From: an uncultured Bacilli bacterium
GTDB taxonomy: Bacteria; Bacillota_I; Bacilli_A; RF39; UBA660
Reading direction: 5' to 3'
Assembly (NCBI GenBank): GCA_944363635.1
Contig: CALVUP010000007.1
Location: forward strand, 1,666 to 65,665
DNA length: 64,000 nt
Position 1 is the first letter of the stretch; the number at the start of each line of letters is the position of its first letter. The notes under the pieces are model-generated. The model did not search any database. It was not told the DNA's origin and saw only the letters and a list, made by a program, of their open reading frames with translations. Shown here one piece after another: positions 4,863 through 42,583 of this stretch. Made by a program: the position numbers and the translations under genes.

Positions 4863-4872
4863 AGGTGGTTTT

Positions 4873-5503: not shown

Positions 5504-5531
5504 TATTTTATAAGATAGGGAGGATAAAAAG

Positions 5532-6077
5532 ATGAAATTAAATAAAAAAGGTTTTACTTTGATCGAATTATTAGCGGTTATTGTTATTTTAGGTGTTATT
5601 ATGTTAATTGCAATACCAAGTGTATCTAAGATCATTGCAAGTTCAAGGGAAAATACTTTTAGATCAACGGCTCAAACTTTAATATCAGGAGCTAGAAATA
5701 TGGTTTTAGCTTCCGCAGATGGTAGACCATCTGGTGATGGATGGACACAAGTTGCAAAGACTACTACTGTGAACGGCCATTCACTAGATAATATGGATTA
5801 CATCATTAAAATAGAAAAGATTCCTGTAGAGAGTGGTTCTCATACAAAAAGTCCATTTGGCGTTGATTATAATCAAGAATACAGTTTTGTAATTGCTATT
5901 GCTGATGATGAAGGAAATTATGACTATTATATTCAAATGGTAGATGCAAATAAGAATCATTTGCTATTGACGCCTGAAGATGAGTTGGATATTACTAGTA
6001 TAAATGGTGAAGATGCTTATAATAGTACTAATCAGAATAACCTTACTACTTTTACAAACCTAACAACAGCTAGTTAA
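5532..6077 (+). CDS. prepilin-type pilin-like protein
   Basis: MKLNKKG|FTLIELLAVIVILGVIMLIAIP; GGGAGGA RBS. Confidence 0.8.
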   Translation: MKLNKKGFTLIELLAVIVILGVIMLIAIPSVSKIIASSRENTFRSTAQTLISGARNMVLASADGRPSGDGWTQVAKTTTVNGHSLDNMDYIIKIEKIPVESGSHTKSPFGVDYNQEYSFVIAIADDEGNYDYYIQMVDANKNHLLLTPEDELDITSINGEDAYNSTNQNNLTTFTNLTTAS

Positions 6078-20794: not shown

Positions 20795-20847
20795 AGCTTG
20801 TTTTTTTTAATTATGATCCATTATAATACGTTACAGGAGATGATATT

Positions 20848-21561
20848 ATGCTTGATCAATATATGCAACAAGTAAAAGAAAAAGAGCAAAAACTTCAACA
20901 ATTAAATAAGAAAGGCTTAGCTTTGAAAGAACAACTTGCAAATGCAGAGGATGATGTAGCAAAAACTAAAGAAGAATATAATCAATTGGTCGGTGAAAAT
21001 TTAGATCTTATGGATCGTATTGTTGAGATAGAAAGAAATAAACAGACTTATAAAGAAACGAAAAAAATACTTATAGGAGGATCTGTAGTTTATTGTATTT
21101 TGGCTATATCTGCCTCGGCTTTTTTTGTTCTTAACGACCAACAATTTTCAATGGCGTTTAAAATAATTTTTCCTGCATCTGCTGTTGTGATAGGAGAAGC
21201 AGTGCTCTTAAAATTTTGTGCAGGTAACATTTGGTCATTAAAAAAAAGTTTTAAGAATATCAATATCAAACAAGAAAAACAAAAACTAGAAACAGCGCAA
21301 AAAGAACTCAGTGTTAAGACGAAAGAACTTGAAGCAAGTAAAAATGCAAGAGATACTCTTACGAAGCAGGTAGAAGCAAATAGGAAAGAACAACGTCAAT
21401 TGTTAGGAAAATTTGATGAAATTAATATAGAAAGAATGGAAAAAATAGATCCTTTAGTAGAAGCACTTGTGGATCAAGGAATGGTAACAGATAAATTAGA
21501 AATGACACCAAAAGCAAAAGCGCTTATCAAAGGACAAAGACAAAATCTGAAACAAGGATAG
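20848..21561 (+). CDS. hypothetical coiled-coil membrane protein
   Basis: Coiled-coil N- and C-terminal segments flank two hydrophobic helices. Confidence 0.5.
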   Translation: MLDQYMQQVKEKEQKLQQLNKKGLALKEQLANAEDDVAKTKEEYNQLVGENLDLMDRIVEIERNKQTYKETKKILIGGSVVYCILAISASAFFVLNDQQFSMAFKIIFPASAVVIGEAVLLKFCAGNIWSLKKSFKNINIKQEKQKLETAQKELSVKTKELEASKNARDTLTKQVEANRKEQRQLLGKFDEINIERMEKIDPLVEALVDQGMVTDKLEMTPKAKALIKGQRQNLKQG

Positions 21562-21621
21562 GCAAGTATTTGTCTTTCTTTTTGTTTTATACTATAATAA
21601 ATGTACTTTGGAAGTGAGAAT

Positions 21622-22500
21622 ATGATCGTGGTAATAACAGGACCAACTGGAGTTGGTAAAACAAAATTAAGTGTAGAACTTGCGAAAAGAATACATGCGG
21701 AAATTATTAATGCCGATAGTATGCAAGTGTATAAAGGATTAGATATTGCAACAGCAAAAATAAAAGAAGAAGAAAAAAAAGGAATTGTTCATCATTTATT
21801 TGATATGAAAGAAGTTTCTGAAATGTATACCATTTATGATTATCAAAAAGACGCTAGAAAAAAAATTGCGGATATTTTATCTCGTGGTAAAAATGTCATT
21901 TTTGTTGGAGGAAGTGGTTTATACATCAAAGCAGCCTTATACGACTATCAGTTTCAAGAAGAAAAAGAAAAAAGGAGTTACGAAGAACAATCCAATGAAG
22001 AGATTAAGGCGAGAATTGAAAAAGTTATGCCATGTCCTATTCATGTAAACAATCGAAAAAGACTTGTACGCATGCTTAATAAAATTGAAAATAGTGCGAT
22101 GACGCTTGAGAAAAAGGACAAAAAAAAGCTATATGATTTTGTAACGATTGGGCTTACCACATCAAGAGAAATTTTGTATCAAAAAATCAATGATCGCGTC
22201 GATCATATGATGGAGGAAGGGCTTGAACAAGAAGTAAAAACATTTTATGATCAAAACCTAAGAAGCAAAGCCATTTTAACGGGAATTGGTTATAAAGAAT
22301 TTTATGAATATTTTGATCATAAAATAACAAAAGAAGAAGCAATTGCTAAAATTAAAAAGAATTCAAGAAGATATGCGAAAAGACAATATACCTTTTTGAA
22401 TCATCAAATGGATGTACATTGGATCAATACGAATTATGAGGACTTTAAACAAACCATCGAAGAAGCTTATCGATATGTAAAAAAAGTTTATAAATTTTAA
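21622..22500 (+). CDS. miaA: tRNA dimethylallyltransferase
   Basis: IVVITGPTGVGKT P-loop and NADSMQVYKGLDI motif. Confidence 0.85.
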   Translation: MIVVITGPTGVGKTKLSVELAKRIHAEIINADSMQVYKGLDIATAKIKEEEKKGIVHHLFDMKEVSEMYTIYDYQKDARKKIADILSRGKNVIFVGGSGLYIKAALYDYQFQEEKEKRSYEEQSNEEIKARIEKVMPCPIHVNNRKRLVRMLNKIENSAMTLEKKDKKKLYDFVTIGLTTSREILYQKINDRVDHMMEEGLEQEVKTFYDQNLRSKAILTGIGYKEFYEYFDHKITKEEAIAKIKKNSRRYAKRQYTFLNHQMDVHWINTNYEDFKQTIEEAYRYVKKVYKF

Positions 22501-22538
22501 AATTTATGTTATGATAGACACATTTAAGGAGTGAGAAT

Positions 22539-23060
22539 ATGATAGAAGCAACATATGTAATGATAAAACCAAATATTGCCAAATTGGAGGCATCTTTAAA
22601 AGACCCAATCGTAAAAGATATCATTTCTAGATATAATGCTTGTGGGTTAGATGTTATTGCGATGAAAAAAGCACGTTTGACTTTAGAACAAGCAGAAGTT
22701 CATTACGATCATTTAAAGGATGAAGATTTCTTTGAAGAATTAACAAATTTCATGGCTGATGAAGTGATTGAAATGATTGTTATTGGAGAAAATGCCGTTG
22801 AAGTTGTTCGAAAAATCAATGGACCGACCAATGTGTTAAAAGCTAGAAAAGAATCTCCAAATTCGATTCGAGCTTTGTATGGAGATCCTAATTTTGCGTG
22901 TGCAAATGCTATACATGCATCGGATTCAAAAGAAAATGCGGAAATTGAAATCAATCGTTTTTTCCCAGAACTTCATTTCAAACAACCAAAATTTTTAAAT
23001 ATTCCAGAGGCTAAACGAAGCTTGGTAAAACATAAATATCTTGCAAATAAAAGTATGTAA
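22539..23060 (+). CDS. ndk: nucleoside diphosphate kinase
   Basis: VMIKPN N-terminus and NAIHASDS active-site region (NxxHGSD pattern). Confidence 0.8.
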   Translation: MIEATYVMIKPNIAKLEASLKDPIVKDIISRYNACGLDVIAMKKARLTLEQAEVHYDHLKDEDFFEELTNFMADEVIEMIVIGENAVEVVRKINGPTNVLKARKESPNSIRALYGDPNFACANAIHASDSKENAEIEINRFFPELHFKQPKFLNIPEAKRSLVKHKYLANKSM

Positions 23061-23077
23061 ATTTACATACTTTTTTA
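23052..23077 (+). terminator. Rho-independent terminator
   Basis: agtatgtaaa / tttacatact palindrome followed by tttttt. Confidence 0.65.
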
Positions 23078-23137
23078 CTGCTTAAATTTATTGAATATAG
23101 AATGTGTGGTATACTAAGTATGGAGTGTGAGTGCAGT

Positions 23138-25006
23138 ATGAAAGATAAACATAAAAAAACAAAAAATAAAAAAATGGTTTTTCTTTTTCTTTTCTTATTA
23201 TTCCTAGTTTTTTTACTTTTTGGTATAGGTTATTTTTATCGTGTCAAAACAAAAGAAAATATTAATGCGAAAGCCGTGGAATATTTTGAAAGTATAGAGG
23301 CCGAAAAAGATTTTGGTAAAGAGAAAGAACAAGTTGCTTATTCTTCTAAATGTGCTTCTGTTATTCGTTATCCTATTCTTTCGATTTCAAGTATTGATCA
23401 AGATTTAGAAGAAAAAGTAGAGACGATGGAAAATGCTTTTTATCAGAAGTATAAAAGTAAAGGAATTTCACTTGGGAAGATTCAGTATTATTTATTTATC
23501 GATTATGAAACTTTTTATGGTGTTGATGATGTTATTAGTGTTGTATACCATCAAACCATTTTAGATAAGGATGGTAAGGTTATATCTGAAAAAGTGAACC
23601 CTTATCATTATACATTGCAGACAAAAGAAGAAATCACAGATACTTATATTTTTATATCTGGATATGAAAAGAAAATTAGTACTTATTTAGAGAATTATTA
23701 TAAAGAAAAAGAGGGATTAACGCAAAACTATGCAGATACTACTTATGAACAAACTTCTTATAATTATATTTTAACCAGTAATGGTGTATATGTTTATTTA
23801 TTAAAAAAAGATTTATATAATACAGATGGTATCGAAAAAGTTGAAATTCCATTTGATGCTTTAAAAGATATTATGAATTTAGATGTCTCTAAAAAAGTAG
23901 AAAGTTTAAAAGAAACTTCTAAAGAAGAAAGAGAGTCTTTCAAGGAAGATCATAAAAAAGTTTTTATCAAACAAAAGACCAATGTTTATGAAAAAAATAA
24001 TAAAAACAGTACGTTTTTAGGGGTATTAAATAAAGGAGATTATATTGAACAGATTGCTGTAGGCGATCATTTTATAAAAGTAAAATATCAAAAGAAAGAA
24101 GGATATATTTCTTTATCATCTATTTCTTATGAAGCAATTGCTAAAGAAGGTTATGCGTTGGTTGATGATACGATTTTGTTAAAAAAGGGAACAGTGATCT
24201 ATGTAGATGATTCATCCGCTTCAAGTCAAATAACGACACTTTCTAAAATGAAATCGGTTGTACGTATCGGGAAAACAAAAGATTGGCATGAAATTCTTTA
24301 TGAGGACTCTATTGCATTTGTGAAAACTTCAGGGATTGTAACGGATGTACAAGGAAAAACACCAATTTCTATTTCGAAAAATAGAAAGTTGGATCCAAAT
24401 AAGCCTATGGTGGCTTTGACATTTGATGATGGGCCAAATCCAACGTCAACCAATAAAATTTTAGATGTTTTAGAACAATATGGTGCGGTTGCTACTTTCT
24501 TTGATTTAGCCAATCTTATGGAACAATATCCATCTGTTGTCCAAAGAGAAGAGGAAATTGGATGTGAAGTGGGTACGCATACCTATTCTCATGTGGATTT
24601 AACAAAGTTATCTATAGAAGGGTTACAGGAGGAAATGGATAAATCTTCAAAGGTTTTTAATAGGGTGTTAGGTCATGATCAGGTACTTGTAAGAGCTCCA
24701 TATGGTAGTGTCAACAATCAGGTTCGAAAATATCTAGGATATCCAATGATTGGTTGGGATATTGATACTTTAGATTGGAAATATAGAAATAAAGATAAAA
24801 TTTTAAATGAAGTACGTAAGATAAAAGATTATGATGGTCGTATTATCTTGATGCATTCTATTTATAATACGACAGCTGAAGCTGTAGAAGTATTAGTCCC
24901 AGAACTGATAAATAAGGGATATCAGCTTGTAACGGTTTCAGAACTTGCAAAATACAATGGTTATGATTATTTGAATCATGGAACAGTGTATTATAGTTTT
25001 CGATAA
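23138..25006 (+). CDS. membrane-anchored polysaccharide deacetylase (NodB domain) with SH3b-like repeats
   Basis: N-terminal TM segment; C-terminal VALTFDDGPNPTSTNKILDVLEQYGAVATFF NodB motif; two SH3_3-like segments mid-protein. Confidence 0.8.
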   Translation: MKDKHKKTKNKKMVFLFLFLLFLVFLLFGIGYFYRVKTKENINAKAVEYFESIEAEKDFGKEKEQVAYSSKCASVIRYPILSISSIDQDLEEKVETMENAFYQKYKSKGISLGKIQYYLFIDYETFYGVDDVISVVYHQTILDKDGKVISEKVNPYHYTLQTKEEITDTYIFISGYEKKISTYLENYYKEKEGLTQNYADTTYEQTSYNYILTSNGVYVYLLKKDLYNTDGIEKVEIPFDALKDIMNLDVSKKVESLKETSKEERESFKEDHKKVFIKQKTNVYEKNNKNSTFLGVLNKGDYIEQIAVGDHFIKVKYQKKEGYISLSSISYEAIAKEGYALVDDTILLKKGTVIYVDDSSASSQITTLSKMKSVVRIGKTKDWHEILYEDSIAFVKTSGIVTDVQGKTPISISKNRKLDPNKPMVALTFDDGPNPTSTNKILDVLEQYGAVATFFDLANLMEQYPSVVQREEEIGCEVGTHTYSHVDLTKLSIEGLQEEMDKSSKVFNRVLGHDQVLVRAPYGSVNNQVRKYLGYPMIGWDIDTLDWKYRNKDKILNEVRKIKDYDGRIILMHSIYNTTAEAVEVLVPELINKGYQLVTVSELAKYNGYDYLNHGTVYYSFR

Positions 25007-25007
25007 A

Positions 25008-25039
25008 AGAGATTGAACTATTGACGTCAATCTTTTTTC
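25008..25039 (+). terminator. Rho-independent terminator
   Basis: agattga ... tcaatct followed by tttt. Confidence 0.5.
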
Positions 25040-25087
25040 GTTTTAAAATAATTATAGTAATAATAGGAGTACTGATAGGTGAAGAAA

Positions 25088-26992
25088 ATGAAAAAAAATA
25101 AAAAAGGGTTTAGCTTAGTTGAATTGTTAGTTGTTATTGCTATTATTGGTGTTTTACTTTTGATTTCTTTTCCTTTAATTAATCATTTGGTGGCGAGAAA
25201 TAATAAAAGTAAATATGATGCTTATCGAGATATGGTTGAAGAAGCAACAAAAATCTATATGGATGAGCTAGGATTTAAGATATCGGGATGTTATTCTTTA
25301 TCGGCAAGTGAATTACAAGCACAAGGGCTTCTTAGTAATTTTTCGGAACAAGATTTAGATGCGGATGTTTTTATTTATACGGATGAAGAAGGGAATATAG
25401 ATGATATAAAAATTAACATTTATGATGAATCTTTGGAAGATCCATCTACATGCAATGAAAGTGGTTTTGGAGAGTGTGAAATTGTAGATTGGAATGAAAT
25501 ACTCGCATGTAAATATGAAATCGTACAAGATCAAAGTGCTTATGGACAAAATGCAGACTTTTCTGGAGCGAATGCTCCAAGATTAAAAGAAAAGATGATT
25601 CCTGTAAAATATGATGGAGAAAATTGGGTAGTCGCAGATGTAAATAATTATAAATATTCATATGTCTTTGAGGAAGATTATTCTTGGTATAATTATAATG
25701 ATGGTTATTGGGCTAATGCAATTTATGTAAAAGAGGATGCCTATTCAAAGTATGTTACAAATGGTGAGTTTACTATGCAAAAGATTGTGAGTGAGGATGA
25801 TGTATTATCATGGTGGGTATGGATTCCAAGGTTTGCTTATAAACGTGATAATCGTGATTATCTTATAGAGTTTTTAAAGGATACGGATTCAAATGTATCA
25901 AGCGGGTATCAAATCGCAGAAGCTTTTGTTGACCCAGATTATAATAGTGATGCTACAAACGAAGAACTTGATAAAAAGTATTCTGAAGATTATGGCTTTT
26001 GGGTAGGAAAATATGAGCTTGGAAAAGAAGGAGATACCTATGTTGTAAAACAACAAGATGATGCTTCTAATTATCTTACGAAGCAAACAGCGACGGAATT
26101 TATAAATGCGGGTACTCAAATCACAGGAGCACATACCATTCGTAACAAAGAATGGAATACAGTCACATTATTATCTTTATCTAAATATGGGAGTGAAGAT
26201 TCTTCGTCTGAATATACGACAGATAATAATAGCGGGGTTTATAATATGGCATCAAATGTAGAGTTTACGGCAGGAAATTTAAGAGGACTTACCAATTTTA
26301 ATATTAAAGTTACTTGTGAAAATAGTTGTAATGATAATGGAGAATCTGTAGTTACAGCTGAAGAAACGACAGTAAATACTTCTGGCTCAACAAGTGGTTG
26401 GCTTTTTCGCCCTTATGATAAAAAGAATTATTGTAATCCAAATGCTTATGATAAAAATACGGCTGTAACTGCTTGTTTGTTAATCGTAATGGATGGAGGA
26501 ATTCCTACATTAATTACCGATAATGATGTAGATATATATAATATGAATTATCATTGGTATGCATCAGGTAGTATTCTGGATTCTTATACTTGTGATACGA
26601 ATTTTTGTGTTTATGGTCCAAATGGTAGTACAATTAAGTCACCAAATAAAGTAGACAGTGATGCATTTTTAACTTATAGTAGTTTTAGATCTGGTTATCC
26701 AAGATTTTCACTTACTTATAATGACGATGGTACTTGGACACGAAAAACAACAGCAGTTTCTGGTCAGGTGACAAATGCTTATTTATGGACTTTCCGAGGA
26801 AATAATAATATTTCTTCTACAAGTTACTATGATGATATTACGATTGATTATGATGAAATGATGGAAAAATTAAATAATACTTGCCAGCCACAACTTACTT
26901 GTACAGAAGAAGATAAAAAGACAACAACGAAAACGGTTTATCAATCTTCTTATACTGAGTATGATGCTAGAACTCGAGTAGTAATTCGTTAA
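25088..26992 (+). CDS. large modular prepilin-type protein (637 aa), paralog A
   Basis: MKKNKKG|FSLVELLVVIAIIGVLLLISFPLINHL class III signal and a roughly 590-aa Cys/Thr-rich C-terminal domain. AGGTGA RBS. Confidence 0.75.
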   Translation: MKKNKKGFSLVELLVVIAIIGVLLLISFPLINHLVARNNKSKYDAYRDMVEEATKIYMDELGFKISGCYSLSASELQAQGLLSNFSEQDLDADVFIYTDEEGNIDDIKINIYDESLEDPSTCNESGFGECEIVDWNEILACKYEIVQDQSAYGQNADFSGANAPRLKEKMIPVKYDGENWVVADVNNYKYSYVFEEDYSWYNYNDGYWANAIYVKEDAYSKYVTNGEFTMQKIVSEDDVLSWWVWIPRFAYKRDNRDYLIEFLKDTDSNVSSGYQIAEAFVDPDYNSDATNEELDKKYSEDYGFWVGKYELGKEGDTYVVKQQDDASNYLTKQTATEFINAGTQITGAHTIRNKEWNTVTLLSLSKYGSEDSSSEYTTDNNSGVYNMASNVEFTAGNLRGLTNFNIKVTCENSCNDNGESVVTAEETTVNTSGSTSGWLFRPYDKKNYCNPNAYDKNTAVTACLLIVMDGGIPTLITDNDVDIYNMNYHWYASGSILDSYTCDTNFCVYGPNGSTIKSPNKVDSDAFLTYSSFRSGYPRFSLTYNDDGTWTRKTTAVSGQVTNAYLWTFRGNNNISSTSYYDDITIDYDEMMEKLNNTCQPQLTCTEEDKKTTTKTVYQSSYTEYDARTRVVIR

Positions 26993-27009
26993 ATAAAGAG
27001 AGTGATGCT

Positions 27010-27933
27010 ATGCAATATTTAGAAGAATATATTAGGTATTTAACTTATGAAAAACAATATTCAAAATATACGGTTGTGAACTATGAAAGCGATATTTTAG
27101 AATTCATGGAATATTTGGGTCAAGAGGGGATTTCATTACTAAAAATTGATTACTCTCTTATTCGTGGTTATCTTAGTTATTTATTTAATGAAAAAAAAGA
27201 TAATAATACGACAGTCAGCAGAAAAATCAGCTCTTTAAGAGGTTTCTATAAATATCTATCCAATCATGGGTTAATTAAAAATAATCCTTTTCGTTTAGTC
27301 TCATTACCTAAAAAAAACAAACATTTGCCAAAATATTTCTATTATAATGAATTAGAAGAATTATTTAATAGTTGTGATACAAAAACACCTCTTGGTCAAA
27401 GAGATGAACTTATTTTAGAAATGCTTTATGCAACAGGAGTGCGCGTGAGTGAGCTTGTTAATATTCAAGTTGCAGATATTAATACGTATGATATGACGAT
27501 TAAAATATTAGGAAAGGGTAATAAAGAGAGAATTGTTTCTTTTGGAGAATATGCAAAAGATGCTTTGGATTTGTATATATCGGATGGTAGAAAAACTCTA
27601 AATACTAAAAATAGTAATTATTTGTTTTTAAATCATATAGGTGGACATCTTACAACGAGAGGGGTACGTGATATTTTAAATCGTATTATTAAGAAAACAA
27701 GTTTAGATAAAAATATTTCTCCCCATATGCTAAGACATACTTTTGCTACACATCTTATTAATGAGGGATGTGACCTGCTGGCTGTTTCTGAGTTGTTGGG
27801 CCACGAAAGTGTATCTGCAACGCAGATTTATACACATGTAACAACAGATCATCTAAAAGACGTTTATTTTCATACCCATCCGAGGGCTTATATAAATGAA
27901 AATGAGGATAAGTACAATGCAAACAAAGAGTAA
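27010..27933 (+). CDS. XerC/XerD-type tyrosine site-specific recombinase
   Basis: 307 aa; N-terminal core-binding domain; C-terminal R..K..HxxR..Y catalytic set (MLRHTFATHLI...LGH...IYTHV). Confidence 0.85.
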   Translation: MQYLEEYIRYLTYEKQYSKYTVVNYESDILEFMEYLGQEGISLLKIDYSLIRGYLSYLFNEKKDNNTTVSRKISSLRGFYKYLSNHGLIKNNPFRLVSLPKKNKHLPKYFYYNELEELFNSCDTKTPLGQRDELILEMLYATGVRVSELVNIQVADINTYDMTIKILGKGNKERIVSFGEYAKDALDLYISDGRKTLNTKNSNYLFLNHIGGHLTTRGVRDILNRIIKKTSLDKNISPHMLRHTFATHLINEGCDLLAVSELLGHESVSATQIYTHVTTDHLKDVYFHTHPRAYINENEDKYNANKE

Positions 27934-27949
27934 ATTGTACTCTTTTTTC
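27926..27949 (+). terminator. Rho-independent terminator overlapping the recombinase stop
   Basis: aagagta aattg tactctt followed by ttttc. Confidence 0.55.
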
Positions 27950-27978
27950 TTGACTCGAGGTGGGCTAATATTTATAAT
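27950..27978 (+). promoter_or_regulatory. sigmaA promoter for modular pilin paralog B
   Basis: ttgact - 17 nt - tataat. Confidence 0.6.
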
Positions 27979-28002
27979 AAATTCATAATAGGAGTGTGTA
28001 GC

Positions 28003-29733
28003 ATGAATAAAAAAGGATTTAGCTTAATTGAATTGTTAGTTGTTATTGCTATTATTGGTGTTTTACTTTTGATTTCTTTTCCTTTAATTAATCATCTCGT
28101 CGAAAAAAATAACGAACAGAAATATAATGCTTATCGGGGAGTTATACGCGAGGCGGCTAAGGTGTATATAGATGAACTTGGTTTTTTAATGTCTGGTTGT
28201 TATGAGATTAAAGATGGTGATAAAACAGGTTTTGAAGTGTTAGAAGAGGCTGGATTGCTTACGAATATAGAGGACGATTGTACGGGTACACGAGTTTATA
28301 TATTAATGAATAGTGAAGGAAAGCCTACAGATTATAAAGTGAATTTAATATGTAATGGCAAGGCGATTGGCAAACAAGAATATATCGAGAAAAAATGTGA
28401 ATATGAAGTAGTACAGTATAAAGATGCATTTAATTCCAATGTTGATCCGAATGTTAATTCTCCAGAACTAAATGCAAAAATGATTCCTATAAAGTATTAT
28501 AGGAAAGATAATACAGCACAATGGATTGTGGCAGATGAAAACAATCTTAAAACTTCTTCCGTATTTGAGGAGGATTATGCTTGGTATCTTTATAATCAAG
28601 ATTATTTAGCGAATGCAGTTTATGTTAATGAAGATGCTTATTCAAAATATGTACAAGATGGTAAGTTCCAAGTAGGCACAAAGCTTGATGAGGAAGATGT
28701 TACAAGCTGGTGGGTATGGATTCCAAGATTTGAGTATAATAATACGGATATTCATTATCTTATAAATACACGTAAGGCAATGAAGGAGGGATATAAGGTT
28801 CATCCGGCTTTTACAACTACACAGCAAACAGGAAAGAAAGAATTAACTGGTTTTTGGATAAATAAAAATATTAATTTAAAGTCAGCTGTTGATGAAAATG
28901 GAAGTATTGTAGGGGATGATATGCATAGTATTCAAGAATATTTGGATTATGGTATTGACTTTTCTAAAGAAAACCAGTCTCATGTAACACGCGATTTGGA
29001 ATTTAATGCGGCTTACTTAATTAATTCTGATAATGAGACTAAAATTAATGATATGGATCAAGTTCAGTTTACAGGTGGAAATTATGGAGGAGGAAGCGCC
29101 TATCGCTTTAATAATGCTATAGCAAATATTTATTATATTGGTTCCTCAGGATCTAAAGGAGAGATTATTACAGAATGTAAGTGGGATCATTACGATGGCT
29201 TGCGTTTAACGACATATTATGATTGCAGTAACAATTGGAAGATTTGTGCTTTAAAAACAAATGAAGATTATATGGAAGGAAATATTTCAAAATGTGTAGA
29301 GGGTAGATGTACAAAAGTACTCAAAATGCGCTTAAAAGCTTCTCCTAATGGTGTGGTTTCTTTTACAAATGATGAAAAATCAAGTTTGTGGTACAAATAT
29401 ATTGATATTTATGATGACTATGTAAAAAATCAAATGTATATTGACGATTTGTGTTCTAAAACTGATTTTAATGCTTCGTCTTCAGCTAGTTTTCAATCTC
29501 CTTGGACATTTCGAAAATCAGATTATAACGAGGTGGTTCATAGTGCATCTTATAGTGTCACCTATAATTTTTCGTCTTTGTATAGTCAATTAAATAAAGA
29601 GTTTCTTGCTAGTAATAATATAGGGCATACAACGAATATGACAGGCAAAACAGTTAAAATATCGGCTACACTAGGTACAAATCCTTTGGATCGTGTGTTT
29701 TCTTACGGTACAAGGCTTTCTATGTATTATTAA
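28003..29733 (+). CDS. large modular prepilin-type protein (579 aa), paralog B
   Basis: MNKKG|FSLIELLVVIAIIGVLLLISFPLINHL. Shares the SWWVWIPRF-Y block and an identical 68-nt 5' segment with paralog A. AGGAGTG RBS. Confidence 0.75.
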   Translation: MNKKGFSLIELLVVIAIIGVLLLISFPLINHLVEKNNEQKYNAYRGVIREAAKVYIDELGFLMSGCYEIKDGDKTGFEVLEEAGLLTNIEDDCTGTRVYILMNSEGKPTDYKVNLICNGKAIGKQEYIEKKCEYEVVQYKDAFNSNVDPNVNSPELNAKMIPIKYYRKDNTAQWIVADENNLKTSSVFEEDYAWYLYNQDYLANAVYVNEDAYSKYVQDGKFQVGTKLDEEDVTSWWVWIPRFEYNNTDIHYLINTRKAMKEGYKVHPAFTTTQQTGKKELTGFWINKNINLKSAVDENGSIVGDDMHSIQEYLDYGIDFSKENQSHVTRDLEFNAAYLINSDNETKINDMDQVQFTGGNYGGGSAYRFNNAIANIYYIGSSGSKGEIITECKWDHYDGLRLTTYYDCSNNWKICALKTNEDYMEGNISKCVEGRCTKVLKMRLKASPNGVVSFTNDEKSSLWYKYIDIYDDYVKNQMYIDDLCSKTDFNASSSASFQSPWTFRKSDYNEVVHSASYSVTYNFSSLYSQLNKEFLASNNIGHTTNMTGKTVKISATLGTNPLDRVFSYGTRLSMYY

Positions 29734-29825
29734 TGTCATTTTCTGTAAAAAAGTGGCATTTTTTATTGAATATTTTTTGTCTTATTGTTATACTATAAGG
29801 GTATGAAAAGAAAGGAGAAAATATC

Positions 29826-32462
29826 ATGAAATTTGTTTATTTATTTAAAGAAGGTAACGCTGACATGAGAGCCCTTTTAGGTGGTAAGGGTGCTAATTTA
29901 GCAGAAATGACAAATTTAGGTTTACCAATTCCACAAGGGTTTACCGTTACTACAGAAGCTTGTACGGATTATTACAAGAATGGAAAAACAATTTCGGAAG
30001 AAATTCAAAGCCAAATTTTTGATGCTTTAAAAGTATTAGAAGAAATGCAAGGTAAGAAATTTGGTGATAATTCAGATCCACTTTTGGTTTCTGTTCGTAG
30101 TGGAGCTCGTGCTTCTATGCCTGGTATGATGGATACAATTTTAAACTTAGGTTTAAATGATGAAGCTGTAGAAGGCTTTGCCGCTAAAACAGGAAATCCA
30201 AGATTTGCTTATGATTCTTATAGAAGATTCATTCAAATGTATTCTGATGTTGTTATGGAGGTTCCTAAATCATTCTTTGAAAAAATCATTGATGAGGTAA
30301 AAGAAGCTAAGGGAGTTCAATACGATACAGAACTTACTACAGAAGATTTAAAAGAGTTAGTTACTCGTTTTAAAGCTGTATATAAAGAAGCTATGAATGG
30401 GGAAGAATTCCCACAAGATCCAAAAGAACAATTAATGGGGGCTGTTAAAGCCGTATTTAGATCATGGGATAACCCAAGAGCTATCGTTTATAGAAGAATG
30501 AATGATATCCCTGGTGATTGGGGAACAGCTGTTAATGTTCAAGCTATGGTGTTTGGTAACATGGGAGATACTTCTGGTACTGGTGTTGCCTTTACTCGTA
30601 ATCCAGCTACTGGAGAAAAAGGCATTTTTGGTGAATACTTAATTAATGCACAAGGTGAGGATGTTGTTGCAGGAGTTCGTACTCCACAACCTATTTCTAA
30701 ACTTGCAGATGATATGCCTGAAGTTTATAAAGAATTTATGGAAATAGCTCATAAGTTAGAAGATCATTATAGAGATATGCAAGATATGGAGTTTACGATT
30801 CAAGAAGGAAAACTTTATTTCTTACAAACACGTAATGGAAAAAGAACAGCGCATGCTGCAATTAAAATTGCTTGTGATTTAGTAGACGAAGGTATGATTA
30901 CGAAAGAAGAAGCTGTACTTCGTATTGAAGCAAAATCACTTGATCAATTGTTGCATCCAACATTTAATACAGAAGCATTAAAGAATGGAGAAGTTATTGG
31001 AACTGCTCTTCCAGCATCACCTGGAGCTGCGGCTGGTAAAGTATATTTTACTGCAGAAGATGCTAAAGCTGCTGGTAAAGGTGGACGTGGCGAAAGAGTT
31101 ATCTTAGTTCGTCTTGAAACTTCACCAGAAGATATTGAAGGTATGAATGCCAGTCAAGGTATTTTAACAGTTCGTGGTGGTATGACATCACATGCTGCTG
31201 TTGTTGCTCGTGGTATGGGTACTTGCTGTGTATCTGGATGTGGCGATATTAAAATCGATGAAGAAAAGAAAGAATTTACTTTAGGTGGTTATACATTCCA
31301 TGAAGGAGATTATATTTCATTAGATGGTACAACTGGTAAAATCTATAAAGGAGATATTGCTACTGAGGAAGCTTCTGTTGGTGGAGACTTTGGTAGAATT
31401 ATGGCTTGGGCTGATGAAATTCGTACTTTACGTGTAAGAACAAATGCAGATAATCCAAGAGATACATTAAATGCTATTAAGCTTGGTGCTGAAGGTATTG
31501 GTCTTTGTCGTACAGAGCATATGTTCTTTGATGAAGAAAGAATTCCAAAAATCAGAAAGATGATTTTATCTGATACAACGGAAGAAAGAGAAGAAGCTTT
31601 GAATGAATTAATTCCATTCCAAAAAGGAGATTTCAAAGCTATGTATGAAGCTTTAGAAGGAAAACCAATGACAGTACGTTATTTGGATCCACCTCTACAT
31701 GAATTCTTACCTACAACAGAAGAAGATATTAAAGCTTTAGCAGAAGATATGCATATTTCAGTAGAACAAGTTAAAAATAAATGTGCTGAACTTCATGAAT
31801 TTAACCCTATGATGGGACACAGAGGTTGCCGTTTGGCTGTTACTTATCCAGAAATTGCTAGAATGCAAACAAGAGCGGTTATGGAAGCTGCTATTGAAGT
31901 AAAGGAAGAAAAAGGATATGATATTGTTCCTGAGATTATGATTCCACTTGTTGGAGAAAAGAAAGAATTAAAATTTGTTAAAGATGTTGTTGTTGAAACA
32001 GCAGAACAAGTTAAGAAAGAAAAGAATTCTGATATGCAATATCATATTGGTACTATGATTGAAATTCCAAGAGCTGCACTTACTGCAGATGAAATTGCTG
32101 AAGAAGCTGAATTCTTCTCGTTCGGAACAAATGATTTAACACAAATGACTTTTGGATTCTCAAGAGATGACGCTGGTAAATTCTTAGATTCTTATTATCA
32201 AGCTAAGATCTATGAATCTGATCCATTTGCTAAGTTAGATCAAAAAGGTGTTGGTCAATTGGTTAAAATGGCTGCTGAAAAAGGAAGAAAAACAAGACCT
32301 GATATTAAATTAGGTATTTGTGGTGAACATGGTGGAGATCCATCAAGTGTTGAGTTCTGCCATAATATTGGTTTGAATTATGTATCTTGTTCTCCATTTA
32401 GAGTTCCAATTGCACGCCTTGCTGCTGCACAAGCTGCTATACACGAAAAGGAGAATAATTAG
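29826..32462 (+). CDS. ppdK: pyruvate, phosphate dikinase
   Basis: 878 aa; phosphohistidine region GGMTSHAAVVARGMG; PEP-utilising C-terminal domain. Confidence 0.92.
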   Translation: MKFVYLFKEGNADMRALLGGKGANLAEMTNLGLPIPQGFTVTTEACTDYYKNGKTISEEIQSQIFDALKVLEEMQGKKFGDNSDPLLVSVRSGARASMPGMMDTILNLGLNDEAVEGFAAKTGNPRFAYDSYRRFIQMYSDVVMEVPKSFFEKIIDEVKEAKGVQYDTELTTEDLKELVTRFKAVYKEAMNGEEFPQDPKEQLMGAVKAVFRSWDNPRAIVYRRMNDIPGDWGTAVNVQAMVFGNMGDTSGTGVAFTRNPATGEKGIFGEYLINAQGEDVVAGVRTPQPISKLADDMPEVYKEFMEIAHKLEDHYRDMQDMEFTIQEGKLYFLQTRNGKRTAHAAIKIACDLVDEGMITKEEAVLRIEAKSLDQLLHPTFNTEALKNGEVIGTALPASPGAAAGKVYFTAEDAKAAGKGGRGERVILVRLETSPEDIEGMNASQGILTVRGGMTSHAAVVARGMGTCCVSGCGDIKIDEEKKEFTLGGYTFHEGDYISLDGTTGKIYKGDIATEEASVGGDFGRIMAWADEIRTLRVRTNADNPRDTLNAIKLGAEGIGLCRTEHMFFDEERIPKIRKMILSDTTEEREEALNELIPFQKGDFKAMYEALEGKPMTVRYLDPPLHEFLPTTEEDIKALAEDMHISVEQVKNKCAELHEFNPMMGHRGCRLAVTYPEIARMQTRAVMEAAIEVKEEKGYDIVPEIMIPLVGEKKELKFVKDVVVETAEQVKKEKNSDMQYHIGTMIEIPRAALTADEIAEEAEFFSFGTNDLTQMTFGFSRDDAGKFLDSYYQAKIYESDPFAKLDQKGVGQLVKMAAEKGRKTRPDIKLGICGEHGGDPSSVEFCHNIGLNYVSCSPFRVPIARLAAAQAAIHEKENN

Positions 32463-32545
32463 TCCACAGTTACAAATGGATTTAACCTTGTTTAATCATC
32501 GATAAAATATCACAATATAAGATCTAAGGGAAAAAGGACTAAATT

Positions 32546-32579
32546 AGACCAGAATTTCAAAAATTCTGGTCTTTTTTTA
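32546..32579 (+). terminator. Rho-independent terminator after ppdK
   Basis: agaccagaattt caaa aaattctggtct followed by ttttttt. Confidence 0.75.
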
Positions 32580-32772
32580 TGAAAAATAGTATTTTTTACC
32601 AAAAATTTAATGCTTGAGAAACGAGGTAAACTCGAATTGAATAAATGTTATGAAATCAAAAACATTGTATATTCATTTTTTAAATTTATATAAATAACAA
32701 AATATAAAACTATCGATTTTTATGGTAAGATATAATTAACCAATTAAAATCATCTTAGATTGGAGGTTAATT

Positions 32773-33765
32773 ATGAACAATAAAAATTTAATGTTAAGAC
32801 AAATGATGATAATATCTGATATGGTTCCATATATGAAAAGAAAAAATATTAAATTTGAAAAATGCTCAGAGAAAGACGCTGAAATATATTTGAGAGAAAA
32901 TAATAATTATTATAATGTAACATCTTATAAAAATAATTTTGTTAAATATCAGTGTGGTAAACAACAAGGAAAGTACATAGATTTGGATTTTGCATATTTA
33001 AAAGATTTATCTATTATAGATTATAGGACTAGATTAGTACTATTTAAAATGATCATTGATATAGAACATTATTTAAAAATAAGAATATTAAATACCATAG
33101 AAGATATAGTAGATGAAGATGGTTATAAAATTGTTAATCTATATTTAGAAAAAGATTTTTATGATGAAAAATGGCCTAAAAGAGTACATGAAAGTATCAG
33201 AAAAAAAGTTACAAATGAATATTATCAAAAAATATTTTCTAAATATGACTTAGATAAAGATACTAAAATAGAAAATATACCAATTTGGGAATTTCTTGAG
33301 ATAATAACTTTTGGAGAGCTGATTAATTTTTTTGCGTTTTTTACTAAGTATTATCAATTGGAAGATAATCAATATATATTTATTTTAAGGGAAGTAAATA
33401 AACTTAGAAATGCAGTAGCACATAATTCTTGTGTACTATCTGAATTAGCTAAAAAGGATAATACACATAGAGCTGATACATTAGTTATTCATTATTTGAA
33501 AGATTGTGGAATAGGAAAGGAAAATAGAAATACTAAACTTTCTAATTCAAGAATAAGACAAATTACATATACTTTGTATATGTTTAATATTATAGTAAGT
33601 AGTGAAGGTGTAAAAAATAATGTTAAACATGATATTACAAAATTATTTTATGAAAGAATAATTTTGAATAGAAAGTACTACAATAATAATGAACTATTGA
33701 AATCCATATATAATTATTTTGATAAAATTATCAAAAAAAATTATAAAGAAAATTCGGATCAATAG
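32773..33765 (+). CDS. Abi_2 family abortive-infection protein (AbiD/AbiD1/AbiF-like)
   Basis: 330 aa. N-terminal NNYYNVTSYK matches the family's YYRxSxY motif; ITFGELINFF; LRNAVAHNS (RNxxAH). About 20% GC; GGAGG RBS. Confidence 0.72.
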   Translation: MNNKNLMLRQMMIISDMVPYMKRKNIKFEKCSEKDAEIYLRENNNYYNVTSYKNNFVKYQCGKQQGKYIDLDFAYLKDLSIIDYRTRLVLFKMIIDIEHYLKIRILNTIEDIVDEDGYKIVNLYLEKDFYDEKWPKRVHESIRKKVTNEYYQKIFSKYDLDKDTKIENIPIWEFLEIITFGELINFFAFFTKYYQLEDNQYIFILREVNKLRNAVAHNSCVLSELAKKDNTHRADTLVIHYLKDCGIGKENRNTKLSNSRIRQITYTLYMFNIIVSSEGVKNNVKHDITKLFYERIILNRKYYNNNELLKSIYNYFDKIIKKNYKENSDQ

Positions 33766-33766
33766 T

Positions 33767-33795
33767 TTGACATAGAAAAATATTTGTGGTATATT
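33767..33795 (+). promoter_or_regulatory. sigmaA promoter (extended -10) driving a short intergenic transcript
   Basis: ttgaca - 17 nt - tatatt with TGg immediately upstream of the -10. Confidence 0.55.
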
Positions 33796-33832
33796 ATCTA
33801 TGCAAGGAAAAAATGTTAAATCATTTTTGTAA

Positions 33833-33864
33833 GGGGTCTATTTTCGAATAGAGCCCTATTTTTT
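33833..33864 (+). terminator. Rho-independent terminator about 40 nt downstream of the promoter
   Basis: gggtctatt ttcg aatagagccc followed by tatttttt. Confidence 0.55.
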
Positions 33865-33895
33865 ACCAAAAGTTATCAAAAGAAAATAATTAATG

Positions 33896-33938
33896 AAAAT
33901 GCTAGTTCATTGACTAGCATTTTTTATTATGTTATAAT
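33896..33938 (+). promoter_or_regulatory. second hairpin/terminator overlapping the sigmaA promoter of the 621-aa gene
   Basis: 11-bp perfect stem aaaatgctagt / actagcatttt. The -35 ttgact sits in the loop/right arm, then 17 nt, then tataat. Confidence 0.55.
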
Positions 33939-33961
33939 ATACCATTATTAAAAAAGGGGAC

Positions 33962-35827
33962 ATGCGAAATATGGGGGCTAATGATTTTGATTTTAAAGAT
34001 AAGGATTTTTTAAAAGACGTATATGCTTTAATAAAAGAGAAAGCTAAAGAGGAAGAACACTTATTTAGCGATAATAATCCGGCTAAAATAGAAAATAATC
34101 CTTTACTTGCGGATTTTGATTATGTCTATCAACATGCTGAATATCTTTTTTGTTTTTGCGTATTTGATTATCAAAACTATCAAAAAGCAGATCAATATTT
34201 TACCCTGTTTAAAGTTTTAACGACGAAATATAGTTTGGAAGAGGATTATAATACGTATATAGTTTCAGATCCACGGGTTCTTGATTTAAAGTGGGAACGT
34301 TTTTGTAGTGAGTTGTATAGTTTTTTATATCATGCCATGCAAGATGAGCGTGTTTTAATAGAAGTTATCAATAAAAAAGAAGTTATTGACTATTTTACAA
34401 GATATTCTTATTTATATGATCATAATGCATTGTTTCGTGATTCTACTGCGACTGCTTGTAGTGAATTATTAAAGTATTCACAATTTCATTCTTACTATTT
34501 GTACCATCCAAGAGATCTAATCTATTTAATGAAAAAATATCCTTTTATAAAAGTTCCACCTGATGTTATGTTAAATACAAATATAATACAGAATGTTACA
34601 CATGAGATTGATATGTATAAATTTTATTCCATGTTATACTATGTTGGTGAACAAGTATCGGAGTATCATTATTTAGAAGAACATAAAAAATATTTGGATG
34701 AACAAATAAACAATATAAAAGATGGGATATTGCCTTATTTTTATGATGCCTATTTAAAAAGTAATCATCATATATCAATATATGATATAAGAAGTTTTGC
34801 TTATAGATGGAATTTTAATGTAAATAGAATGTGTAACATATTTAAAGAAAAAGGCACAAATAAATTAAAAAAAGATACTTTATTTCAAGCATTAACAAAA
34901 GAATATTTGCTGGATATTTATATCAGTAGACATTTTGAAACCTATCCAGATAATTTAATCATTGATATTGAAACTTTAACGAAATTTGCAAAAGAGAATC
35001 ATAAAGTATTAAAAGGGCAAATTATTTATGATTTTATCGCCAACTATAAAGAAAAATCCATTGATGAGATTATTCAATTTTATAATGCTTCTAAAAATTT
35101 AAATATAAAAGAGATATTATATGACGACTGGAATAAGCAAATAGAATCTTTTATTAGCGAATTAAATGAAACTATTCTTCTACCTGAAAAAATAGAGGAT
35201 TATGAAGTTCATTTATTGAATGAAGAAGGAAAACAAAAACTTACTGCAAGTGATGTAAAAATTTTTGATATTACTAATATAGATGCACCAATATTAGTTC
35301 ATAATACTTCCGTATCTAAAGAGAATCAGGAGGTTATAGATAAGACTTTACAACAAATAAAAACAGGGTATAAAGAACGATTGTGTTTGAGTTTACAAGA
35401 TAAAAATCATACAGAATTTTATACAGAATCTTTTGTAGAAGAAGCTAAAGATAAAGAAATAAAATTTGTATTTGGAAAAATGGAAGCAAACAGAGTGGGA
35501 ATTGTTTGTCATGAAGATGCCTATTCCATTGGTATTGATACTGTTGAATTTGGAAATTTTGGATATATAAGAAGTTTGTATACGGTTCAGTCTTTACTAG
35601 ATCATACAACGAGATACAATGAAATTGATTATCTTATTTCTCATGAACCCTTTCTCCCAGTTGCACTTCTTTGTGAGAATAAAATAAATGATTATGATAT
35701 TAATTTAGCGTCTAAGCTAAACATTCCTATATTTTTTAGAGAAAAGAAAAACATTTTAGAAAATACAGAGATTCATGAGGATCATAAAGTCAAAAGAAAG
35801 TATCAGCATATTGGGATTTTAAACTAA
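33962..35827 (+). CDS. hypothetical 621-aa cytoplasmic protein (no recognisable domain), candidate partner of the Abi_2 gene
   Basis: Long ORF, AT-rich, Tyr/Asp-rich, with no TM segment or P-loop. Has its own promoter. Confidence 0.6.
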   Translation: MRNMGANDFDFKDKDFLKDVYALIKEKAKEEEHLFSDNNPAKIENNPLLADFDYVYQHAEYLFCFCVFDYQNYQKADQYFTLFKVLTTKYSLEEDYNTYIVSDPRVLDLKWERFCSELYSFLYHAMQDERVLIEVINKKEVIDYFTRYSYLYDHNALFRDSTATACSELLKYSQFHSYYLYHPRDLIYLMKKYPFIKVPPDVMLNTNIIQNVTHEIDMYKFYSMLYYVGEQVSEYHYLEEHKKYLDEQINNIKDGILPYFYDAYLKSNHHISIYDIRSFAYRWNFNVNRMCNIFKEKGTNKLKKDTLFQALTKEYLLDIYISRHFETYPDNLIIDIETLTKFAKENHKVLKGQIIYDFIANYKEKSIDEIIQFYNASKNLNIKEILYDDWNKQIESFISELNETILLPEKIEDYEVHLLNEEGKQKLTASDVKIFDITNIDAPILVHNTSVSKENQEVIDKTLQQIKTGYKERLCLSLQDKNHTEFYTESFVEEAKDKEIKFVFGKMEANRVGIVCHEDAYSIGIDTVEFGNFGYIRSLYTVQSLLDHTTRYNEIDYLISHEPFLPVALLCENKINDYDINLASKLNIPIFFREKKNILENTEIHEDHKVKRKYQHIGILN

Positions 35828-42414: not shown

Positions 42415-42491
42415 GGACCCTTAGCTCAGTTGGTTAGAGCATCCGGCTCATAACCGGGCGGTCATAGGTTCAAGTCCTATAGGGTCCACCA
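42415..42491 (+). tRNA. tRNA-Met (anticodon CAT; elongator type, could be tRNA-Ile2 if lysidinylated)
   Basis: Cloverleaf: acceptor GGACCCT/AGGGTCC, anticodon loop cuCAUaa, TPsiC GGTTCAAGTCC, encoded CCA, 1:72 G:C pair. Confidence 0.9.
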
Positions 42492-42498
42492 TTTTTAT

Positions 42499-42583
42499 GC
42501 GGGTATGGCGGAATTGGCAAACGCACTAGACTTAGGATCTAGCGGGGCAACCCTTGCAGGTTCAACTCCTGTTACCCGCACCA
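42499..42583 (+). tRNA. tRNA-Leu (anticodon TAG)
   Basis: Acceptor GCGGGTA/TACCCGC, anticodon loop cuUAGga, long variable arm, encoded CCA. Confidence 0.9.

Follow-up and report, generated by a model that had tools for sequence, protein, structure and literature searches.

The 68-nt segment that two modular type IV pilin genes share near their 5' ends is best explained as the trace of a gene conversion that was short, recent and confined to this genome, at a hypervariable adhesin-pilin locus where the recombinase gene between them (xer) is probably a housekeeping neighbour. A probability of roughly three in four is assigned to this explanation. The two paralogs would have recombined at their 5' ends by a RecA-type homologous mechanism, and the homology arms would be the conserved 5' sequence of the pilin module and the flanking polysaccharide deacetylase, xer and ppdK sequences. 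Across the population, heads of at least three types would replace one another and switch between two slots, one upstream and one downstream.

The window, i.e., the whole stretch of DNA that was analysed, comprises 64,000 nt from an uncultured gut Bacilli bacterium with 30% G+C, and all features discussed here are on its forward strand. The upstream slot contains a pilin gene for 634 aa with a type A head (25088..26992), and the downstream slot one for 576 aa with a type B head (28003..29733). The program-made open reading frames begin at GTG 25079 and GTG 27994, but ATG 25088 and ATG 28003 were taken as the starts, because they have better ribosome-binding sites and agree with database proteins of 634 and 576 aa. 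Both genes encode the prepilin N-terminal methylation motif (Pfam N_methyl, 6e-9 and 3e-8, plus TIGR02532), and residues 1-115 correspond to a pilin fold, with matches to pilins in the PDB at E-values from 1e-12 to 1e-4. Each pilin is built from a class III signal peptide, a stalk of ~150 aa, a conserved β-rich MIPVKY..WVWIPR block and a variable head. In the upstream pilin, the signal peptide reads MKKNKKG/FSLVE, the pilin module spans ~150 aa, and a conserved MIPVKY..SWWVWIPRF block precedes a variable, lectin-like head. The sequence-only reading of both genes as modular type IV pilins, constant in the 5' part and diverged in the heads, is supported. Both proteins are presumably displayed on a pilus with an adhesive function. 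The B gene of the window is recorded from one metagenome assembly only, and the exact 68-nt identity accordingly rests on a single assembly.

The best Foldseek match of the head is 5vf4 (E 9e-3, probability 0.99, TM-score ~0.2), i.e., the variable protein TaqVP, which belongs to a diversity-generating retroelement. The same entry is the sole PDB profile match outside the pilin N-terminus, and conserved motifs are aligned. Matches to Pfam FGE-sulfatase were weak, with scores under the gathering cut-off, and 130 of the 485 residues of the head model (about a quarter) are below pLDDT 50. In sequence and modelled fold, the head bears a weak resemblance to the FGE-sulfatase type of the C-type-lectin fold. 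A fold of the TaqVP kind tolerates large sequence variation in its ligand-binding face. Neither a reverse transcriptase nor a template/variable repeat pair was found within the window and, unlike in diversity-generating retroelements, the variation here is by exchange of whole heads.

As reported from the sequence, the 68-nt string is present twice in the window, as an exact direct repeat at 25119..25186 and 28028..28095. It codes for (V)ELLVVIAIIGVLLLISFPLINH of the α1 helix. No other exact match between the pilin genes is as long; the runner-up, within the SWWVWIPRF block, measures only 20 nt. A repeat search stretches the match to a tract of 131 nt with 89% identity (25097..25227 versus 28006..28136), which is read as the footprint of the conversion. 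Across the first 30 codons, the nucleotide identity of the pair is 98%, whereas beyond the 5' end the same codon is used at only ~59% of identical residues; overall, the proteins are 38% identical. The 76-nt sequence coding for the SWWVWIPRF block (25792..25867 versus 28689..28764) is 74% identical, which is ordinary conservation at the protein level. The window has six further prepilin 5' ends, which share only 64-81% identity with each other or with the pilin pair, in line with the earlier remark that these genes use different codons. Under the window's own codon usage, the probability that all 22 tract codons coincide is 2e-8, and that copy B draws exactly the codons of copy A is 2e-7. The Leu codons TTG, TTA and CTT are mixed identically in both copies.

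Within a genome, the paralogs resemble each other more closely at their 5' ends than they do between genomes, a pattern of concerted evolution by gene conversion. In a 99-nt matrix, identity within a genome was 90 for the window and 97 for L002, as compared to 63-87 between genomes. L002 has an independent tract of ~450 nt that is ~99% identical; its pilin pair is 97-100% identical in each 30-codon block up to codon 120, with an exact run of 300 nt, and its genes are 84-86% identical to those of the window in the first 30 codons. In L023, which has the same layout and encodes the same peptide, the two 5' ends match at 78 of 99 nt, with many synonymous differences. Thus, the conversion tract measures ~100 nt in the window and ~450 nt in L002, and is absent in L023, and it is from this variability that dependence on RecA is inferred. 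Because the 5' ends in L023 differ despite the same layout and peptide, this locus serves as a natural control, which excludes both codon bias and a conserved DNA site as the cause of the identity. In the downstream gene, the tract agrees with the A lineage, as represented by L024, a strain of the same species without gene B, and differs from the B lineage of L023 at ~10 sites. Since this copy is mostly A-lineage sequence, the downstream gene was mainly the recipient, and the upstream gene mostly the donor. In the upstream gene, positions 25162 and 25165 carry B-lineage bases.

At least three head types (A, B, and C) are found across strains. Their distribution conflicts with how the pilin modules are related, and the stalk follows lineage, not head type. 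In the window and in L023, type A is upstream and type B downstream, whereas L002 shows the reverse order. L031 has only type B, in the upstream slot, and in L001, xer is followed by a type C pilin. The presence of the second pilin varies within the species: L024 and L025, whose flanks share 99.5% identity with those of the window, lack gene B. On its right, the downstream slot is bordered in every relative, whether it is filled or empty, by a conserved spacer (AATGTCATTTTCTGTAAAAAAGTGGCATTTTTT..., 29734..29825), which begins at the stop codon of pilin B and includes a promoter-like site of ppdK (29766-29794). At its 3' end (27700-27933), xer diverges from its counterpart in L024 over a recombinant patch that adjoins the gene B indel. 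The swapping of C-terminal domains between strains, which the sequence-only reading proposed to look for, was found. Between the near-identical strains L029 and L033, identity is 99-100% across the deacetylase gene, over the initial ~340 nt of the pilin gene and in xer, but drops to 40-50% in between; their stalks are 90% and their heads 6% identical. This is a clean replacement of the head, and its breakpoints fall within the pilin module and where the pilin gene meets xer.

Alternatively, Xer might act site-specifically on the shared 5' segment and delete, fuse or exchange heads, resulting in phase or antigenic variation, but this is improbable. As noted earlier, a complete tyrosine recombinase is encoded exactly between the two repeats: the open reading frame at 27010..27933 specifies a XerC-like protein of 307 aa with R145, K172, H239, R242, H265, and Y274. 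Its linkage to the pilin family is unusually tight and is found in three orders, i.e., pilin-xer, xer-pilin, and pilin-xer-pilin, with overlap of the genes in L029 (pilin-xer) and L001 (xer-pilin). In the sister clade of L005 and L006 (Xer 57% identical), xer is followed by a gene for a membrane-anchored, non-pilin protein with the same head, and the exchange of heads between strains and slots is real. However, xer is kept, and tightly linked, in at least nine single-pilin loci (L018, L022, L024, L025, and L029-L033), in which no partner repeat is available to it because there is only one pilin. Moreover, in L003, an 84%-identical ortholog is part of the gene order ftsK-rnhB-xer, and no large modular pilin lies beside it. 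The tract was found to contain neither a dif-like site nor a significant Xer-type dyad; the best match was 8/11, which chance alone would produce about once. Despite its identical layout, L023 has no shared nucleotide site, and neither the range of tract lengths nor the L029/L033 breakpoints point to one fixed core. The repeats are direct, and the pilin genes, which have the same orientation, each have a promoter-like site of their own. The deletion or fusion between direct repeats that had been anticipated would place a pilin directly before ppdK, without xer, and this product was present on no contig, i.e., in none of ~15 loci. Gene conversion, one half of the original proposal, is borne out, whereas the other half, site-specific action of Xer, is not supported. 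The xer gene is a conserved neighbour that most likely encodes the chromosomal dimer resolvase of the XerC type and not a dedicated pilin recombinase.

The transcriptional signals can be described as follows. A promoter-like site (TTGACG-17-TAAAAT, 10/12, a consensus match only) precedes the first pilin gene at 25021..25049, and the best such site of the region (TTGACT-17-TATAAT, 11/12) precedes the second at 27950..27978. The xer gene starts 17 nt past the stop codon of pilin A and is probably co-transcribed with it, since no terminator-like site was reported between them. A weak hairpin with a T-run (AGAGTA-AATTG-TACTCT-TTTTTT, 27927..27949), read by eye, overlaps the xer stop codon and is possibly a terminator; it was not reported by the terminator scan because it has too few G-C pairs.

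There is only a slight chance that the identity is an assembly artefact, in which the assembler or read correction gave the downstream gene the 5' end of its abundant upstream paralog. The window is indeed a short-read metagenome scaffold, and the B protein is the one recorded from a single assembly. However, ~10 differences over 68 nt, as in the B lineage of L023, would be kept on separate graph paths and not be "corrected," and the xer/B and B/ppdK junctions are unique sequence. Furthermore, the same phenomenon recurs, with a longer tract, in the independent assembly of L002, which comes from another host and whose gene order is proven by unique junctions. Least probable of all is that no recombination took place and that codon bias, which the sequence-only reading had considered, or selection at the nucleotide level, for example because prepilin 5' ends serve translation initiation or membrane targeting, produced the identity: the genome has skewed codon usage at 30% G+C and conservation of the peptide is high in all relatives, but the codon-usage null (2e-8 to 2e-7), the identical Leu codon mix, the 12-36 differences per 99 nt with which other lineages encode the same peptide, the 21 differences between the L023 paralogs, and the 64-81% identity of the remaining prepilin 5' ends all contradict it.

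Recombinase genes also adjoin paralogous surface-protein genes with conserved 5' ends in the tyrosine-recombinase systems for surface variation, i.e., Xer1/vpma and HvsR/vsa of Mycoplasma, the shufflon Rci and Moraxella Piv. The likeness to Mollicutes systems and shufflons that had been drawn does not hold, as the locus has no inverted sites and no conserved core site, and loci with a single pilin gene keep the recombinase. Gene conversion or allelic replacement at variable pilin loci is known from Neisseria pilE/pilS and the Pseudomonas aeruginosa pilA allele groups, with which the locus shares a constant N-terminal region, a variable C-terminal region and RecA-type exchange. Unlike pilE/pilS, it has no silent cassettes. 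Also, the variable unit is a whole head of ~330-390 aa, not the loops of the pilin globular domain, and conversion would homogenise the constant part instead of diversifying the variable part.

In Streptococcus sanguinis, modular type IV pilins with a vWA module (PilB) and a lectin module (PilC) have been described (Raynaud et al., 2021, PMC8179133). As in those proteins, a class III signal peptide is combined with a small pilin module and a bulky C-terminal ligand-binding module in a monoderm Firmicute, and the likely role is that of a pilus-displayed adhesin. The head of the window pilins is different, being apparently related to the FGE-sulfatase type of the C-type-lectin fold, a type not found by text search of the main text of that paper, and the locus differs in having two paralogs with interchangeable heads in two slots. 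In Francisella tularensis LVS, pilA is lost by recombination between direct repeats (Forslund et al., 2006, as cited in PMC2941502). There too, direct repeats of tandem pilin genes serve homologous recombination (PMC2941502), but a pilin gene is deleted, whereas the locus in the window shows homogenisation by conversion and allelic replacement of heads; a deletion product of the Francisella type, which would also remove xer, was not found for it.

The tight linkage of xer across gene orders and the case of L005 and L006 leave some room for a functional link between the recombinase and the pilins. Overall, the locus appears to be an ordinary yet well documented hypervariable adhesin-pilin locus.

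The two modular pilins in the window are encoded on either side of a XerC-like tyrosine recombinase gene, xer (27010-27933), by an upstream gene, A (25088-26992), and a downstream gene, B (28003-29733). The ATG codons at 25088 and 28003 are the likely start codons, and the products of 634 and 576 aa match the database proteins P0001 and P0007, respectively. The B gene of the window is known from one assembly, and all sequence data considered here are metagenome assemblies. The two proteins are 38% identical overall. The window contains exactly two copies of an identical 68-nt string (25119-25186 and 28028-28095). No other exact match between the genes comes close in length, the next one being 20 nt long in the block encoding SWWVWIPRF, and the ungapped extension of the 68-nt string covers 131 nt at 89% identity (25097-25227 vs. 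28006-28136). Where the residues are identical, the same codon is used in 27 out of 28 cases within the first 30 codons and in ~59% of cases beyond the 5' end. The Leu codons TTG, TTA, and CTT are intermixed in the tract in the same pattern in both copies, and the chance of 22 coincident codons is 2e-8 to 2e-7 if the codon usage of the window itself, in a genome with 30% G+C, is taken as the null model. The 5' ends of six further prepilin genes in the window are 64-81% alike. Thus, with two exact copies and such low values under the codon-usage null, the identity noticed in the sequence-only reading is real and not due to chance.

Species-representative genomes were scanned once with the Xer protein, the hits not including the window's own species, and exact look-ups of homologous pilins were added. 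Together, they yielded ~15 informative loci, all from uncultured Bacilli in gut metagenomes (rabbit, rumen, human, and others). The flanks are constant across these loci, with mutL, miaA, ndk, and a polysaccharide deacetylase gene upstream and a conserved spacer followed by ppdK downstream. Between them, the order deacetylase-pilin-xer-ppdK is found in nine loci (L018, L022, L024, L025, and L029-L033), deacetylase-pilin-xer-pilin-ppdK in the window, L023, and L002, and deacetylase-xer-pilin-ppdK in L001. All three layouts would arise if a pilin-xer unit had been duplicated in tandem and its parts then lost differentially. The spacer contains an element, AATGTCATTTTCTGTAAAAAAGTGGCATTTTTT (29734-29765), which is homologous in all relatives, starts precisely with the stop codon of whichever gene precedes ppdK, and forms the invariant right edge of the variable slot. 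Its AAUGUCA/UGGCAUU stem, large loop, and T-run give it the look of a terminator that is shared. Directly downstream of ppdK, the window contains an Abi_2 (abortive-infection-like) gene (32773-33765), followed by an ORF of 621 aa without obvious family (to 35827); the segment 32773-35827 may constitute a small defence islet.

L024 and L025 are from the window's own species (99.5% nucleotide identity in the flanks), and both are devoid of the downstream pilin gene, which is present or absent as a whole within this species. When the window is compared with a same-species strain, the last 230 nt of xer form a divergent patch adjoining this presence/absence indel, which indicates import or loss of the downstream pilin gene by homologous exchange.

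The related loci also bear out the earlier proposal that gene conversion has acted on the 5' ends of the pilin genes. In L002, the paralogs are ~99% identical for about 450 nt from the ATG, including 300 nt free of mismatches, after which they diverge abruptly. L023 has the layout of the window and an A head that is 96% identical to the one in the window; its two 5' ends encode an identical peptide, yet they match at only 78 of 99 nt (21 differences) and share short exact runs only. Between genomes, this 99-nt stretch differs at 12-36 positions. The lengths of the tracts are 0 (L023), about 100 (window), and about 450 nt (L002), and all of them begin at the start of homology. Because paralogs resemble each other more within than between genomes, whilst tract lengths are unequal and have a common start where homology begins, the 5' identity bears the mark of gene conversion that took place repeatedly and independently. 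The likeness within genomes and the varying tract lengths do not fit a fixed recombination site or selection at the nucleotide level. As to its direction, the A gene of L024 and L025 carries the tract of the window except for two bases, whereas the B lineage, represented by L023, differs at approximately ten; hence, the downstream copy was for the most part overwritten by the upstream copy. The two-base patch (25162 and 25165) was converted in the opposite direction, from B to A. Wider B-to-A conversion was also considered for the stretches 25190-25280 and 25558-25840, where A differs from L024, and was rejected: agreement with B at these sites is no more frequent than disagreement, and the patches therefore represent ordinary inter-strain mosaicism.

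The C-terminal modules, or heads, show another form of exchange. From the sequence after the WVWIP motif, at least three head types can be assigned. Type A is found upstream of xer in the window and in L023, downstream of it in L002, and also in L024, L018, and L022. Type B is found downstream in the window and in L023, upstream in L002, and in L031, with L029 and L032 as looser members, and type C is found in L001 and L033. The relationships between the stalks, i.e., the pilin modules, run across these head types, and, as a consequence of this discordance, one head type is located upstream of xer in some genome and downstream in another. An assembly error as explanation for the swapped order of heads in L002 was rejected: both junctions, head-to-xer and head-to-ppdK, consist of unique sequence, and a B-type head upstream of xer is independently present in L031. 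The sharpest case is the comparison of L029 with L033. Their identity is 99-100% across the deacetylase gene and roughly the initial 340 nt of the pilin gene, drops to 40-50% over the head, and returns to 99% with the opening bases of xer. The head was thus replaced allelically by homologous recombination; one crossover lies within the conserved pilin module and the second at or inside xer. Thus, the swapping of C-terminal domains between strains, which had been predicted from the window, is observed both in the discordance of three head types with their stalks and in the replacement between L029 and L033.

A sharply bounded, hyper-divergent patch is also present in the gene for a 237-aa coiled-coil/membrane protein located between mutL and miaA (20848-21561). 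In the comparison with L024, the number of mismatches per 100 nt is about 28-45 across 21000-21399 and 15 in 21400-21499, as against 0-3 in most flanking windows. This gene looks like a further variable gene that was replaced by recombination.

The recombinase, a protein of 307 aa, matches Phage_int_SAM_1 (2.7e-18) and Phage_integrase (3.2e-46) and contains all six catalytic residues (R145, K172, H239, R242, H265, and Y274). Its score is 329.4 against TIGR02224 (XerC), just under the cut-off of 335.15, and 310.3 against TIGR02225 (XerD), under the cut-off of 329.6, whilst its score of 296.2 against the subfamily model NF001399 is above the cut-off of 279. In L029, the pilin gene overlaps with xer, and in L001, xer overlaps with the pilin gene. 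In L005 and L006, from a clade with a 56-57% identical Xer, xer is followed by a gene for a membrane-anchored protein that bears the same head. These products of 613-620 aa (L005 3035-4876 and L006 3372-5234) do not start as pilins; their N-terminal domain is soluble, and they have a segment that is either transmembrane or a signal (..SYAWLSATN..) and, besides the head, a further β-rich domain. In L003, an 84% identical Xer is encoded in an ftsK-rnhB-xer cluster without a flanking large modular pilin gene. The gene that overlaps the xer stop codon in L003 (8906-10330) encodes a 474-aa Cys-rich protein with, as recognized by eye, a DUF559/Vsr-like endonuclease-type C-terminus, and possibly represents a mobile or homing element.

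The tight linkage between xer and pilin genes may reflect inherited synteny and operon packing in compact genomes. Alternatively, Xer could have a part in the acquisition or exchange of head cassettes beside xer, in which case the adhesin modules would be arranged much as in an integron or an IMEX (Xer-exploiting mobile element). Such a role would agree with the clade-wide and often overlapping linkage, which occurs as pilin-xer, xer-pilin, pilin-xer-pilin, and xer with a gene for a membrane-anchored head protein, and with the presence in the slot beside xer of three head types with three different left junctions. However, a core site was looked for and none was found, and the data disfavor this role to the extent that it is considered very improbable. 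The odds of a functional link between xer and the lectin-headed pilin family are hardly better.

Action of Xer on the 68-nt repeat, which had been suggested from the position of its gene, is not supported. A common site is absent in L023, tracts and breakpoints vary, and no stretch of the compared 5' ends is conserved at synonymous sites across lineages. The xer gene is retained without a second pilin gene in at least nine single-pilin loci and in the ftsK context of L003, which argues against a dedicated recombinase. Neither a dif-like site (best match 20/28) nor a second recombinase was found in the 64-kb window, the shared tract contains no Xer-type dyad (best 8/11, at chance level), and the A-xer-B locus has no match in Rfam. 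Both pilin genes and both copies of the repeat are direct, and inverted repeats in 20000-34000 occur at chance level only; each pilin gene has a promoter-like site of its own, at 25021-25049 for A and, near-consensus, at 27950-27978 for B. Hence, three defining features of the Mycoplasma Xer1/vpma, shufflon, and Piv type systems are lacking at the locus, and the likeness to Mollicutes Xer-like variation and shufflons breaks down, as there is no shared site, there are no inverted sites, and the recombinase is not dedicated. In Francisella, according to a passage in PMC2941502 (citing Forslund 2006), recombination between direct repeats associated with adjacent pilin genes deleted pilA; the deletion product predicted for the repeats studied here is missing from all loci examined. 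A recombinase gene located between two repeats is no evidence of action on these repeats, a caution that applies to genome scans in general, and a handful of related loci sufficed to distinguish homologous from site-specific recombination.

Proteins A and B score 35.5 and 33.2 bits against Pfam N_methyl (cut-off 21.2) and 30.1 and 31.8 bits against TIGR02532 (cut-off 16.3), and the cleavage contexts of their class III signal peptides are MKKNKKG|FSLVE and MNKKG|FSLIE; a short, basic leader terminates in Gly and is followed by Glu at +5 within a hydrophobic α1N helix. Residues 1 to ~115 adopt a pilin fold in the AF2 model (pLDDT about 65-85), in which a long helix (10-60) packs on antiparallel strands (63-72, 90-98, and 104-113), and profile matches to solved pilins (E 1e-12 to 1e-4) run along the helix. 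According to Raynaud et al. (2021; PMC8179133), a modular pilin is a pilin module with an extra, independently folding module that is not specific for type IV pili. A and B are modular pilins in that sense: the head models on its own with a pTM of 0.73, and it also occurs on non-pilin anchors. They are probably adhesins.

When modeled alone, the head is well ordered for the first ~240 residues. The full-length model, which is floppy and multi-domain, retrieved nothing from the PDB with Foldseek. For the head-only model, the top match is 5vf4 (E 8.8e-3, probability 0.99, with a TM-score of only 0.17-0.21 over 139 columns), i.e., TaqVP, the variable protein of a Thermus diversity-generating retroelement, which has the FGE-sulfatase type of the C-type-lectin fold. 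The 5vf4 chain is also the sole profile match outside the pilin N-terminus, with the motifs HPAF..W.GKF and H.M.N.EW.AVA aligned at an E-value of about 0.6. Matches to Pfam FGE-sulfatase (PF03781) stay below the gathering cut-off of 23.3 bits, with 16.5 bits (E 0.007) for the best relative listed; sub-threshold matches were obtained for 9 of 32 and 4 of 8 relatives (best member E-value 0.0014), no match for A, and none at E ≤ 0.01 for either A or B. Taken together, the head probably has the FGE-sulfatase type of the C-type-lectin fold. No such head came up in a text search of the main text of the modular-pilin survey (PMC8179133), and the head is likely an addition to the known pilin modules. 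Its closest solved structure is a retroelement variable protein, a scaffold known to tolerate variation; the heads as targets of a retroelement are excluded for the 64-kb window, which contains no template/variable repeat pair and no RT-like ORF, the three YxDD matches being incidental.

Among 1.84 billion proteins, the head family is represented by 672 clusters (E ≤ 1e-3), and it is also found on non-pilin N-termini, i.e., membrane anchors and signal peptides. Five stretches of P0070, a protein of 4516 aa in the representative library, match the head, and the module is thus also employed in giant multi-repeat surface proteins.

Besides A and B, the window contains six other prepilin genes, four of which were scanned against Pfam. 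Pilin genes in this organism are scattered singly amid housekeeping genes, away from pilus machinery. A gene for a 375-aa prepilin-type protein (17898-19025) sits between uvrC and mutL, with its stop codon overlapping the mutL start, and this position is conserved in relatives (L018 810-1937 and L022 2044-3189). Three small prepilin genes are in tandem (4320-4862, 4873-5433, and 5532-6077) and are directly preceded by three tandem paralogous ORFs of ~180-235 aa (2476-3084, 3026-3730, and 3754-4302; whole region 2476-6077), which appear kinase-like by eye. An ORF for a PilB/GspE-type ATPase (55426-56829, minus strand), recognized by eye from its translation, is divergent from two prepilin-like genes (56922-57689 and 57697-58470). 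No PilC, PilD, or PilM gene was recognized near 55426-58470, and no prepilin peptidase was identified in the window. Elsewhere, two adjacent tRNA genes (42415-42580) and a T-box leader upstream of a pheS-like gene (62205-62405; 124 bits) are present.

Pilins classically have a constant N-terminus and a variable C-terminus, with exchange by RecA-type recombination. The A-xer-B locus is a variable adhesin-pilin locus that evolves by homologous recombination, and it represents a new and well-resolved example of a kind already known. It offers a natural case of the diversification of pilus adhesins in uncultured gut Bacilli, in which lectin-like heads are swapped wholesale between strains and slots, whilst the lineage-specific stalk stays compatible with the pilus machinery and is even homogenized between paralogs by gene conversion.
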